Of a stretch of DNA of 64,000 nucleotides, positions 27,428 to 31,389 are shown piece by piece (position 1 is the first letter of the stretch; each line of letters starts with the position of its first letter). The notes beneath the pieces are model-generated. The model worked only from the letters and a program-made list of their open reading frames with translations, searched no databases and was not told the DNA's origin. Source of the DNA: Escherichia coli. GTDB taxonomy: Bacteria > Pseudomonadota > Gammaproteobacteria > Enterobacterales > Enterobacteriaceae. The DNA lies in the NCBI RefSeq assembly GCF_016903815.1, contig NZ_CP069973.1. The stretch is one strand, 5' to 3'. The translations under genes and the position numbers were made by a program.

Positions 27428-28252
27428 CTACTGAAGGTGTTTCTGCAGCCAGATGCACGTTCCTTCTATATCATACGCCTGTGCCCCATACCCTTTAGCA
27501 AGCAAAGTCTCTGGTAAATACTCGTCATATTTATCCAGATACTTGTCGGGAACAACTGCAGCAAGCTCAAACTCTGAAGGTAGCCCCGACAATAGCATTT
27601 TCTTAAGTGCACGCTGGACAGAGGCAACGCCTGAGTCCTCTACCTCTATCACACCTGCAAATGAACTGGCTTTAAAGCCACAACGTATAATCAGGGACGT
27701 AATTGTATTGACAATTTTATCCCCCATCCACGGGATCACGTAGCAGTTCTGACCACTGGCAATAAAACAGTCATTTTGTAGATTGTAGCGTTGGAAGTTG
27801 TCACTTCCTTCCGCGAAGAGGCTTCTGGCTGCGGCATCAGCATAATCGACTCTCTTGTTGCCTACCGCGATACGGTAATCATTTTCCCTGTAGATAGTGA
27901 GCATTTCCTGGCGAACAACATCATGAACAGACATCCCGGTACCACTGAATAGTGGCGGCTGACCGCCTTTAGTCGTCTCAACATAGATAACCTTTTTTTC
28001 AACCTCGATCTCTGTCACTTTCCAGCGCCGTCCGCCGAAGATGATGTGCTGCTCCGGCAAAAGTGGGGAGTCTACAGGCACTGTGCCAAGAGTTCGGTTT
28101 CCCGTTACAATGCGAAACTCCTCAGGTGTATTGAATACGGCATAAAACGTGTAGTGATTAGTCAGCTTCTCCCCCTCAGCCCCGACAACTATTTCACCGC
28201 TGGTTAGTTGAGTGAGCAGTACGGGGTCGGACCGGTATGCAGCGAACTGCAT
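27428..28252 (-). CDS. Hypothetical protein abutting an IS junction (possibly N-terminally truncated)
   Basis: 274-aa ORF whose 5' end overlaps the start of the IS3-family OrfB frame on the opposite strand. Confidence 0.4.
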   Translation of the reverse strand: MQFAAYRSDPVLLTQLTSGEIVVGAEGEKLTNHYTFYAVFNTPEEFRIVTGNRTLGTVPVDSPLLPEQHIIFGGRRWKVTEIEVEKKVIYVETTKGGQPPLFSGTGMSVHDVVRQEMLTIYRENDYRIAVGNKRVDYADAAARSLFAEGSDNFQRYNLQNDCFIASGQNCYVIPWMGDKIVNTITSLIIRCGFKASSFAGVIEVEDSGVASVQRALKKMLLSGLPSEFELAAVVPDKYLDKYDEYLPETLLAKGYGAQAYDIEGTCIWLQKHLQ

Positions 28253-28604
28253 ATTGCCCCGTCAACGTATTACCATTGTCAGCAACAGCGACATCATCCG
28301 GATAAACGCAGTGCCCGTGTGCAGCACGATGACTGGCTGAAGAGAGAGATACAGCGCGTATACGATGAAAATCATCAGGTGTACGGTGTGCGTAAAGTCT
28401 GGCGTCAGTTGTTACGGGAAGGAATCAGGGTGGCCAGATGTACAGTGGCGCGCCTCATGGCGGTTATGGGACTTGCCGGTGTTCTCCGGGGTAAAAAGGT
28501 CCGTACGACCATCAGCCGGAAAGCCGTTGCCGCAGGCGACCGCGTAAACCGTCAGTTCGTGGCAGAACGTCCTGACCAGTTGTGGGTGGCTGATTTTACT
28601 TACG
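28208..28604 (+). CDS. IS3-family transposase OrfB, 5' exon
   Basis: Ends ...ERPDQLWVADFTY just before GTGTG. Confidence 0.6.
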
Positions 28605-30874
28605 GTGTGCCCGGAGTTCAGGGCGGGCATGGATGCTTAAATGAACCGCGAGTCTGTCTGGAATATTGAACCGGTAACTCACGATGAGAAACCCAACAAT
28701 CCCACCGGGTGTGACGGTGGAGAACCTGAGCGGCAGTGACCTGCGGCATGCCCGCAGGGTGATGTAACCCGCTGACAACGGGGATTGAGGCGAGATCACT
28801 AAGCCGAGATGATCCTCAAGGTTAAGTACTGAAAGGCTGAAGAACATGAACCCGTTAATCCGCCTCTGTGGGTTGAAAACGTCACCACGGCCTACGTGAT
28901 CTGACAGGCCGTGCAGGAGGAACTGGCAGTGATACGTAAGCACTACCGGTCGAAGGTGTTTTGACATGTATGCGAAACACCGGGGCAGCAGCGTCTATCA
29001 CGCTTGCGTTGCTGACTTCTGCCAACTTGCGGCAAGCAAGGATAAAGAGTGCGACGGGCAGCCTCCTCAGTATGCCTGAGTCCAGGCAGGTAAACCGGGG
29101 AAGGTCAGCGACGGATGTTAAGGGGGCATGGCTCCGATGACGCGCTGGCTGGCGGAGCTTCCGTAGTAGTCCGCGATGGGGAAAGCCCATTACATGGCGA
29201 AGGGAAGCAGTTTGAATGTGTTTGCGACGTGAATTAACTGACCTAACGAGGTGAAGACCTTTGATAATCAGCGAAATGCAACGCAAGCTTGCCACATGGG
29301 CAGCCACCGATCCGTCCCTACGGATTCAACGGCTGCTGCGTCTGATAACACAACCAGAATGGCTGGCTGAAGCGGCGCGGATCACGCTTTCATCAAAGGG
29401 GGCCCATACCCCCGGCGTTGATGGCGTGAACAAAACAATGCTACAGGCCAGACTGGCTGTTGAGCTGCAAATCCTCAGGGATGAATTACTCTCAGGCCAC
29501 TACCAGCCCTTGCCCGCCAGACGGGTTTACATCCCTAAAAGCAACGGCAAACTGCGACCACTGGGTATCCCCGCGTTGCGGGATCGTATTGTTCAGCGGG
29601 CCATGCTGATGGCGATGGAGCCGATATGGGAGAGTGATTTTCATACGCTCTCATATGGCTTCCGGCCTGAGCGCAGTGTCCACCACGCGATCCGCACGGT
29701 GAAATTACAGCTCACAGACTGTGGTGAAACCCGGGGACGCTGGGTGATTGAAGGCGACCTGTCCAGTTACTTCGACACCGTACATCATCGACTGCTGATG
29801 AAGGCTGTACGCCGCAGGATCAGTGACGCACGTTTCATGACTCTGCTGTGGAAAACCATCAAGGCGGGACATATCGATGTCGGTCTCTTTCGGGCGGCCA
29901 GTGAAGGTGTGCCACAGGGCGGTGTTATATCGCCGCTATTATCGAACATCATGCTGAATGAGTTCGATCAATACCTGCATGAGCGCTACCTGAGCGGGAA
30001 AGCCAGAAAAGATCGGTGGTACTGGAATAACAGTATCCAACGGGGCCGAAGTACGGCGGTCAGAGAAAACTGGCAGTGGAAACCCGCGGTGGCGTACTGC
30101 CGCTATGCCGATGATTTTGTCCTCATCGTCAAAGGCACCAAAGCACAGGCGGAAGCCATCAGGGAGGAGTGTCGGGGTGTGCTCGAAGGCAGTCTGAAAC
30201 TCAGGCTGAACATGGATAAGACTAAAATCACCCATGTTAATGACGGCTTTATCTTTCTGGGGCACAGGATCATTCGCAAACGCAGTCGTTATGGCGAGAT
30301 GCGAGTGGTCTCAACGATCCCGCAGGAGAAAGCCAGAAACTTCGCCGCATCGCTGACAGCACTGTTATCAGGCAACTACAGTGAAAGCAAAGTCGATATG
30401 GCTGAACAACTCAACCGAAAACTGAAAGGCTGGGCCATGTTCTATCAGTTCGTTGATTTTAAGGCCAAAGTCTTCAGTTATATCGACCGTGTCGTGTTCT
30501 GGAAGCTGGCTCACTGGCTGGCCCGCAAATACCGTACAGGTATCGCTTCCCTGATGAGGTGGTGGTGTAAATCACCGAAACCGGGTCAGAGCAAAACGTG
30601 GGTTTTATTTGGTAAAACCAATCACGGCAAGCTCAGCGGCGAAATACTGTACCGGTTGGTGGGGCAAGGCAAGAAGCTGTTCCGCTGGCGGCTACCCGAA
30701 GGTAATCCCTATCTGAGGACGGAGACCAGAAACACGTATACATCGCGCTTTACAGAAGTGGCAATGGCGTTCGCCAGCATTTAAATGGAGAGCCGGATGC
30801 GCTGAAAGGTGCACGTCCGGTTCGGGGAGGAGAGGCAGGGAAATAGTCCGACTACGCCCTGCCTCTTACTCTAC
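28605..30874 (+). mobile_element. Group II intron (about 2.27 kb) inserted in IS3-family transposase gene
   Basis: 5' GTGTG at 28605; RT ORF; domain V GAGCCGGATGCGCTGAAAGGTGCACGTCCGGTTC at about 30789-30822; predicted splice restores ...[18 protein letters not shown]. Confidence 0.65.
29261..30784 (+). CDS. Group II intron-encoded reverse transcriptase/maturase (intact, 507 aa)
   Basis: RT motifs incl. YADD (CRYADDFVL), PQGGVISPLLSN. Confidence 0.85.
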   Translation: MIISEMQRKLATWAATDPSLRIQRLLRLITQPEWLAEAARITLSSKGAHTPGVDGVNKTMLQARLAVELQILRDELLSGHYQPLPARRVYIPKSNGKLRPLGIPALRDRIVQRAMLMAMEPIWESDFHTLSYGFRPERSVHHAIRTVKLQLTDCGETRGRWVIEGDLSSYFDTVHHRLLMKAVRRRISDARFMTLLWKTIKAGHIDVGLFRAASEGVPQGGVISPLLSNIMLNEFDQYLHERYLSGKARKDRWYWNNSIQRGRSTAVRENWQWKPAVAYCRYADDFVLIVKGTKAQAEAIREECRGVLEGSLKLRLNMDKTKITHVNDGFIFLGHRIIRKRSRYGEMRVVSTIPQEKARNFAASLTALLSGNYSESKVDMAEQLNRKLKGWAMFYQFVDFKAKVFSYIDRVVFWKLAHWLARKYRTGIASLMRWWCKSPKPGQSKTWVLFGKTNHGKLSGEILYRLVGQGKKLFRWRLPEGNPYLRTETRNTYTSRFTEVAMAFASI

Positions 30875-31347
30875 TCAGCACATGGCGGGGCTTCGTCTAT
30901 GTGGCGTTCATCATTGATGTGTTTGCCGGATACATCGTGGGGTGGCGGGTCTCATCGTCCATGGAAACGACATTCGTGCTGGATGCACTGGAGCAGGCGT
31001 TATGGGCCCGTCGACCGTCCGGCACGGTCCATCACAGTGATAAAGGTTCTCAGTATGTATCGCTGGCCTACACACAGCGGCTTAAGGAAGCCGGATTACT
31101 GGCATCAACAGGAAGTACAGGCGACTCGTATGACAACGCGATGGCGGAGAGCATCAATGGTCTTTACAAAGCGGAGGTAATACACCGTAAGAGCTGGAAA
31201 AACCGTGCAGAAGTGGAACTGGCCACACTCACGTGGGTGGACTGGTATAACAATCGACGATTGCTGGAAAGGCTGGGCCATACTCCTCCGGCAGAAGCAG
31301 AAAAAGCTTATTATGCTTCCATCGGAAACGATGATCTGGCAGCCTGA
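30875..31347 (+). CDS. IS3-family transposase OrfB, 3' exon (DDE domain)
   Basis: Track ORF 30901..31347 extended upstream in frame to the predicted splice site. Confidence 0.6.
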
Positions 31348-31389
31348 GTTCACAGATAAAACACTCTCCAGGAAACCCGGGGCGGTTCA

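Follow-up and report, generated by a model that had tools for sequence, protein, structure and literature searches.

What interrupts the orfB transposase gene of an IS3-family insertion sequence (IS) in a 64-kb stretch of Escherichia coli DNA (contig NZ_CP069973.1, hereafter the window), and is the insert an intact intron? The first-pass annotation of the window had proposed that a group II intron is nested inside orfB, and our analysis bears out all coordinates of that proposal; the resemblance is not fortuitous. On sequence grounds we conclude, with a probability of about 0.93, that the insert is a sequence-intact copy of E.c.I4, a mobile class A group II intron with a IIA-like ribozyme, lying at its best-matched homing site in an IS629-type orfB. 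The intron occupies 28605–30874 on the + strand, in sense orientation to orfB, and measures 2270 nt (5′ GUGUG…CUCUAC 3′), in keeping with the gap of about 2.27 kb estimated earlier. It separates a 5′ exon (28212–28604, +), in which an IS629-like orfB remnant covers the HTH_21 region and enters the rve core, from a 3′ exon (30875–31389, +), in which the remainder of the rve core and the orfB C-terminus are followed by the right inverted repeat. For annotation, this means that two pseudogene fragments labelled “IS3 family transposase” and the ltrA gene (together 28214–31347) become one nested element.

The exon junction is readable from the host gene itself. Upstream, the orfB frame reads ...RPDQLWVADFTY and, according to both the list of open reading frames (ORFs) and the raw sequence, ends as ...WVADFTY followed by G28604, the opening base of a Val codon. 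There the frame leaves the transposase sequence, immediately 5′ of the GTGTG at 28605–28609 where the break had been placed. Downstream, the frame resumes at T30875, and joining 28604 to 30875 gives TAC G|TC AGC ACA TGG (Y V S T W) in a frame free of stops until 31345. The spliced product contains an HTH_21 domain (residues 40–97) and an rve domain (120–216), both contiguous, so that splicing at this junction would restore a continuous transposase core, as had been predicted. The conserved W-x-x-D-x-T-Y motif, here WVADFTY, supplies the first catalytic Asp of the DDE triad, and it is four residues beyond this Asp, in codon 133, that the intron interrupts the IS629-like orfB.

Intron-less copies of the same IS carry exactly this join. 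When a 249-nt artificial spliced sequence spanning the junction was searched in complete E. coli genomes, thousands of intron-less copies covered it in one piece at up to 99.6% identity (99.2–99.6% for copies of the same IS), reading ...GATTTTACTTACG|TCAGCACATGG... as the 28604|30875 join does. Two of them, L002 and L003 (the latter assigned by RefSeq to the IS629 family), align as ...GCTGATTTTACTTACGTCAGCACATGGCGG..., identical to 28604 joined to 30875. The boundaries of the intron are fixed because the intron-less copies are continuous across the join.

The same comparison addresses whether the two halves of the host derive from different IS copies, joined by recombination between intron copies. 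Such chimeric hosts of E.c.I4 have been reported (IS629/IS911 and IS629/ISEc31; PMC3522654, Table S2). Among the loci sampled here, one in E. coli IAI39 (L011) and one on an IMG/VR contig (L024) have an IS629-type 5′ exon (...GATTTTACTTACG) followed by an ISEc31-like 3′ exon (TCTGGGCAGGAAATC...), which is consistent with recombination between intron copies. Relative to L002, moreover, the two exons in the window diverge unequally (95.1% identity for the 5′ exon, 99.2% for the 3′ exon). However, the entire 924-nt spliced remnant is matched in one piece at 99.1% by intact intron-less IS copies, e.g., L019, a 1310-bp IS with inverted repeats and programmed frameshift, and only three mismatches to L019 lie outside the fuzzy left end. 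Since one IS matches the whole remnant, both halves belong to a single IS variant, and a chimeric host was rejected as very improbable. The 3′ exon by itself is 99.2–99.6% identical to L002, L003 and L019, and RefSeq labels close relatives of the host IS as IS629 or IS1203 family.

Judging from its sequence, the host is a remnant of an IS629-like member of the IS3 family and is non-functional as an IS. It shares the HTH_21 and rve architecture with intact IS629/IS1203-type elements, yet it is about 400 bp short at the left and split by the intron. Unambiguous IS identity begins at 28212, position ~403 of the 1310-bp element, and the missing part comprises the left inverted repeat, orfA, the frameshift site and the IS’s own promoter region; the observation that orfA and the left end are absent was therefore correct. 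From a full IS3-family element, with its orfA–orfB pair, −1 frameshift and two inverted repeats, only orfB from about residue 10 (stop codon 31345–31347) and the right inverted repeat, which ends ...CCCGGGGCGGTTCA at 31389, are left. Given the loss of the left inverted repeat, orfA, the frameshift site and the promoter, splicing cannot give a working transposase.

The insert itself has the ends and the 3′ domains of a group II intron. Its 5′ GUGUG and its 3′ end ...CUAC (30874) follow the GUGYG/AY rule. The Rfam model of domains V and VI, RF00029, matches 30788–30874 with 64.9 bits (gathering score 40, E = 1.7e-10), and this match terminates at the final base directly before the 3′ exon. Domain V (GAGCCGGAUGCGCUGAAAGGUGCACGUCCGGUUC, 30790–30823, +) is a 34-nt hairpin whose 3′ end lies 51 nt from the junction, close to the 50 nt given earlier for a canonical domain V. 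Domain VI (30826–30872, +), delimited by the Rfam alignment and direct reading, contains a putative branch point, the bulged A30868, which lies 7 nt from the intron 3′ end.

Domain IV encodes the intron-encoded protein (IEP), an ltrA-type reverse transcriptase (RT)/maturase. The intact 507-aa ORF seen at first pass runs from a TTG at 29261 to 30784, and the RefSeq ltrA product (WP_001189111.1, 502 aa; 29276–30784, +) starts at the ATG at 29276; the ORF stops 5 nt short of domain V. Pfam finds RVT_1 at 91–337 and GIIM at 361–426 (507-aa ORF numbering) and no further domain; a YADD motif is present and an HNH/endonuclease (En) domain is absent. The protein also scores above the cut-off of TIGR04416, the NCBIfam equivalog for group II RT/maturases (341 bits against 300). 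The alternative that the insert is some other RT element, such as a retron, a DRT defence RT or a diversity-generating retroelement (DGR), draws on weak NCBIfam matches of the IEP to retron and Drt models, but these reach only 18–54 bits against cut-offs of 200–600 (e.g., 54 vs. 235 and 51 vs. 200). With these scores far below the family cut-offs, a GIIM maturase domain in the IEP, a domain V–VI match that ends exactly at the exon boundary, and empty sites showing that the insert is removed precisely, with the host frame restored, a retron, DRT or DGR identity is refuted, and we regard the chance of such an element as negligible.

E.c.I4 and its homing into IS3-family transposase genes were first described more than 20 years ago. 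The intron in the window differs from E.c.I4-10 of E. coli IAI39 (NC_011750, 489783–492052) at only 3 of 2270 nt (99.87% identity) and encodes an IEP with the same accession; the element is therefore E.c.I4. None of the three differences falls in domain V, domain VI, exon-binding site 1 (EBS1) or the ORF frame. Identity with E.c.I4-26 of pUTI89 is 99.2% across 2946 nt, both exons included. The coordinates of E.c.I4-10 are listed in Table S3 of the catalogue of Enterobacteriales group II introns by Leclercq and Cordaux (PMC3522654), where E.c.I4 is given as class A (Table S2) and is located at specific positions in the IS3-like transposases of IS629, IS911, ISEc16 and ISEc31. E.c.I4 and S.f.I1 are also named as class A ORFs without an endonuclease domain (PMC3552965). 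The copy in the window has the same length, IEP, kind of host gene and insertion position as E.c.I4, itself near-identical to S.f.I1 of Shigella flexneri, and nothing of substance differs; it sits in a 5′-truncated IS629 remnant within a chromosomal island. The nested arrangement of intron in IS is thus already known, being a catalogued E.c.I4 at a published target type, and the ORF already stands in RefSeq as ltrA, so that the discovery value is small. What the survey adds is the finding of matches to E.c.I4 in about half of complete E. coli genomes, the rank of IS629 among its targets, and the use of the same codon in other IS3 copies.

Sequences 100% identical to the 2270-nt intron occur in many E. 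coli chromosomes and plasmids. Of 5426 complete E. coli genomes, 2668 have a match to E.c.I4, which in 1873 extends over 80% or more of the intron length; a further 2186 matching records are plasmids, from Escherichia, Klebsiella, Salmonella, Enterobacter, Yersinia and others. A scan of genome contigs with the intron 5′ end returned four loci, mostly cut off at contig ends, which supplied three more exon contexts and no new intron variants; a scan of viral contigs with the IEP returned 16 loci, all 94–100% identical, which supplied more insertion sites and no covariation.

The rest of the ribozyme was laid out by comparison with Ll.LtrB, the IIA intron of Lactococcus lactis and the best-studied bacterial group II intron. 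The two introns share the order of elements, the 5′ end GUGYGCCC(A/G)GA, EBS2 and EBS1 loops that align with each other's counterparts, a delta position beside EBS1, a nearly identical domain III and a domain IV ORF that begins ~60 nt past domain III; LtrA (5g2x_C, E = 2e-52) is also the closest solved protein to the IEP. Domain III (29157–29209, +) is near-identical to that of Ll.LtrB over CGGAG..CGUAGUAGUC...UUACAUGGCGAAGGG, and its stems are predicted by RNAalifold from five intron variants; the same segment also matches unrelated plasmids of Bacillus, Priestia and Sinorhizobium. A single-sequence minimum free energy fold of the intron 5′ 671 nt gives an uninformative z = −1.35. In contrast to the 599-aa Ll.LtrB protein, the 502-aa protein of E.c.I4 lacks the C-terminal DNA-binding/endonuclease region; E.c.I4 further has a ~43-nt insertion after nt 11 that Ll.LtrB lacks and that is predicted to pair near the 5′ end of domain IV, and its host gene is an IS transposase whereas that of Ll.LtrB is a relaxase. 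In general life-style, E.c.I4 resembles RmInt1 of Sinorhizobium meliloti, a class D, En-minus intron that homes into ISRm2011-2: both are endonuclease-less introns that use an IS transposase gene as homing site.

How, then, would the intron recognize its target? We assign EBS1 to CGUAAG (28935–28940) in the loop (28932–28940, AUACGUAAG) of a hairpin at 28923–28949 (+), where it can form six of six Watson–Crick pairs with intron-binding site 1 (IBS1; CUUACG, 28599–28604, +, exon positions −6 to −1). The candidate EBS2, UGAAAAC (28874–28880, +), in the loop of a hairpin at 28868–28888, pairs, by hand alignment, at 6 of 7 positions with the proposed IBS2, GAUUUUA (28592–28598, +, exon −13 to −7), and, likewise by hand, the delta candidate A28934, just 5′ of EBS1, can pair with the first 3′-exon base, U30875. 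Across relatives of 80–92% identity, the stem of the EBS1 hairpin stays paired through two-sided changes and its loop varies. In the alignment with Ll.LtrB (taken from pAH82), UGAAAAC meets the segment AUGUGU and the EBS1 hairpin loop meets an Ll.LtrB loop, which we take, from the targetron literature, to be the EBS2 and the EBS1 loop of that intron, respectively. An alternative assignment of the first-hairpin loop as EBS2 rather than EBS1 was rejected, the pairing registers being inconsistent between intron variants.

By these predicted pairings, the IS629 exon matches the intron at 13 of 14 guide positions (EBS2 6/7, EBS1 6/6, delta 1/1) and is the best-paired E.c.I4 target of all sites seen. 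Other IS3-type sites reach only 4–5 of 6 with EBS1, usually with a mismatch at −1: the codon is the same and the pairing poorer. Some 12 exon contexts share one insertion point, a single base into the codon next to W-x-x-D-x-T-Y on its 3′ side (WVADFTY, WCGDITY, WCGDVTY, WVTDITY, WVSDITY, WAGDITY and others), and the Serratia relative lies after DITW. Elsewhere in the window, no intron-less homing site was found at up to three mismatches.

Taken together, these assignments outline a mobility cycle of the usual kind. The intron would be co-transcribed with its host gene, and the IEP, made from domain IV, would aid folding of the RNA; the domain I guide loops would hold the 5′ exon through EBS2/IBS2 and EBS1/IBS1, with the delta A on the first 3′-exon U. 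The bulged A30868 would attack the 5′ splice site, the exons would be ligated at 28604|30875, and the lariat–protein particle could reverse-splice into other IS3-type sites. Because the IEP lacks an endonuclease, cDNA priming would probably come from nascent DNA at replication forks. We infer this sequence of maturase-assisted lariat splicing, reverse splicing into DNA and fork priming by analogy with other group II introns.

Several points weigh against this account. The Rfam models of domains I–IV give no match to this E.c.I4 copy even at E ≤ 1, so that domains I–IV were derived by aligning the intron with Ll.LtrB and from covariation in only five sequences. The EBS1 and EBS2 coordinates used for Ll.LtrB, in turn, are background from the targetron literature. 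The EBS1 assignment is not unique, since a second loop, UGUAUG, fits sites other than IS629 better than CGUAAG, for which most of these sites have a mismatch at −1. The fork-priming step is extrapolated from other En-minus introns, and a limited literature search, which included the names EcI4 and S.f.I1, found no experimental study of E.c.I4 splicing or mobility. Lastly, there is no convincing + strand promoter upstream of the element, the sole weak consensus match (28083–28111) being at chance level.

The second loop raises the question of which sequence guides the intron. UGUAUG (28967–28972, +) lies in the next hairpin (28955–28981) and, paired by hand, matches exon positions −6 to −1 in register at 5–6 of 6 for every sampled E.c.I4 site type, with a mismatch solely at −5; CGUAAG, by comparison, is mismatched at −1 in six of eight site types. 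If UGUAUG were the true EBS1, or if both loops served as alternative guides, its U and G would wobble-pair with synonymous or variable codon positions of D-x-T-Y-(V/I), which would explain homing into many different IS3-family genes. Two relatives fit this idea: in the 80% Serratia relative, the segment aligned with UGUAUG is GCCA and the exon ends in UGGC, three positions having changed on both sides, and in the 90% relative the segment is UGUAAG, a 6/6 match to the CUUAUA in which that intron lies. However, in the Ll.LtrB alignment it is the first hairpin, not that of UGUAUG, that meets what is presumably the EBS1 loop, and with IS629, which was seen as host more often than any other IS, CGUAAG, UGAAAAC and delta together make 13 of 14 pairs. 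The 90% relative also points the other way, for its first-hairpin loop GAUAUG pairs 6/6 (two of them G–U) with CGUAUU at the pO157-type site (L037) and 5/6 with the Yersinia pestis site, whereas its second loop reaches only 4/6 at each of the two. Both loops have the core NNUANG in common, and a match to the three invariant exon positions is expected by chance in 1 of 64 6-mers. We consider it unlikely that UGUAUG replaces or shares the role of EBS1, and retain CGUAAG; the complementarity of UGUAUG may be a coincidence or may reflect an alternative guide.

A further candidate feature of the ribozyme is a long-range helix of ~17 bp, predicted by RNAalifold from the five variants, in which the start of domain I (28612–28630, +, intron nt 8–26) pairs with the 5′ part of domain IV (29219–29241, nt 615–637), just upstream of the IEP start. 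Its 5′ strand lies within the ~43-nt insertion, between the domain I stems I(i) and I(ii), and is absent from Ll.LtrB. In the Salmonella relative L015, GCGGGCAU:GUGUUUGC is replaced by GCAGGUAU:GUACCUGC, that is, five substitutions with every pair preserved. A local hairpin at intron nt 5–24 was rejected, as it is broken in four of the five variants. Either this helix or a wobble-tolerant second EBS1 could be real, and the two may be previously undescribed features of E.c.I4-type (class A) introns, although we hold this reading to be quite unlikely. If it were so, the helix could couple folding of the ribozyme to translation or binding of the IEP, and the UGUAUG guide would open many IS3-family genes to a single intron at their conserved D-x-T-Y codons.

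Is this particular copy active? At this locus, splicing would give a continuous but useless orfB fragment, and the intron would be a donor only if read-through transcription reaches it. A rival view, compatible with the E.c.I4 identity, holds that the intron is correctly identified and that the copy is nonetheless a silent relic, not transcribed and neither splicing nor donating, which would persist only through its youth or by carriage with the island. The host IS has lost ~400 bp at its 5′ end and with them its promoter region, the gene upstream of the remnant is on the opposite strand, and promoter-like matches upstream are no more numerous than in shuffled sequence; many E.c.I4 copies, too, are single-copy or inactivated and passively carried on mobile elements (PMC3522654). 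On the other side, the IEP of this copy is identical to the allele at other sampled loci (IAI39, one copy in 55989 and an Enterobacter plasmid), and its ribozyme is just 3 nt from the multi-copy IAI39 introns, with domain V, domain VI, EBS1 and the ORF frame unaffected. Read-through transcription could also reach it, as far as the DNA alone tells. We regard a silent copy as a serious possibility, somewhat short of even odds, and keep to a sequence-intact E.c.I4 as our description of the element.

The loss of the IS left end can be traced to its junction with a helicase gene. Homology to the intact helicase allele extends to 28219 and overlaps IS homology by 8 nt (GTGAGCAG, 28212–28219). Because these 8 nt are common to both parental sequences, the helicase/IS junction (window 28195–28219) suggests a microhomology-mediated deletion; the host IS would have lost its first ~400 bp after the intron arrived, apparently by a deletion that joined it to the helicase gene over this overlap. 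Among the 5426 complete E. coli genomes, 88 share exactly this left junction. E. coli strain 7/2 (NZ_CP023820) has an identical locus, in which the RefSeq annotation runs from a truncated ATP-dependent helicase (−) through two IS3-family pseudogene fragments, with ltrA between them, to fragments of IS30 and of an IS911-type orfA and finally to an IS1.

To the right of the host IS, window 31390–33600 is filled with IS debris, in agreement with the RefSeq annotation of the identical 7/2 locus. It includes the C-terminal fragment of an IS30 transposase (~31383–31532, +), an IS911-type orfA fragment (~31545–31802, −) and a frameshifted IS1 (~32838–33531, −), with a truncated alcohol-dehydrogenase-like gene (31872–32219, −) among them.

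Diverged relatives of E.c.I4 were met on plasmids: a Klebsiella type (L014, 90.5%), a Y. pestis fragment (L013, 91%), a Salmonella Infantis copy (L015, 84.5%) and a Serratia copy (L016, 80%). As a group, the relatives (L013–L017 and L036–L038, 80–92% nucleotide identity) reside on Klebsiella IncN plasmids, Y. pestis pMT1, the Salmonella Infantis megaplasmid and Serratia plasmids, and all sit at the same D-x-T-Y(+1) codon position, in different transposase genes. The Salmonella relative starts with GUAUA, not GUGUG. One IS site with the exon ...ACTTATA holds the 90% type in Klebsiella and E.c.I4 itself in Enterobacter. Plasmids of the pO157 type and of Salmonella Bareilly carry 5′ fragments of 76–96 nt, again at this codon position.

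A second group II intron, E.c.I6, lies at the left edge of the window (1–1769, −), with its last ~38 nt outside. The Rfam models D1D4-3 and D1D4-1 match this copy at 1491–1660 (141 bits) and 1372–1456 (74 bits), respectively, and window 1–2277 is 99.6% identical to a CFT073 stretch containing NC_004431 4320108–4321914. That interval is E.c.I6 (class C) in PMC3522654, where the RT/maturase is also split; in the window it is split into at least two ORFs (795–1334 and 246–773). In CFT073, E.c.I6 is located between grpO and grpP.

Rfam also marks a tRNA at 46126–46198 (−), read from its sequence as tRNA-Phe (GAA anticodon), which may mark the integration site of the island bearing the intron. Farther along the window, Rfam detects the Hfq-binding small RNA STnc490 (60005–60128, +, 146 bits) and a guanidine-II riboswitch (60779–60825, +, 50 bits).

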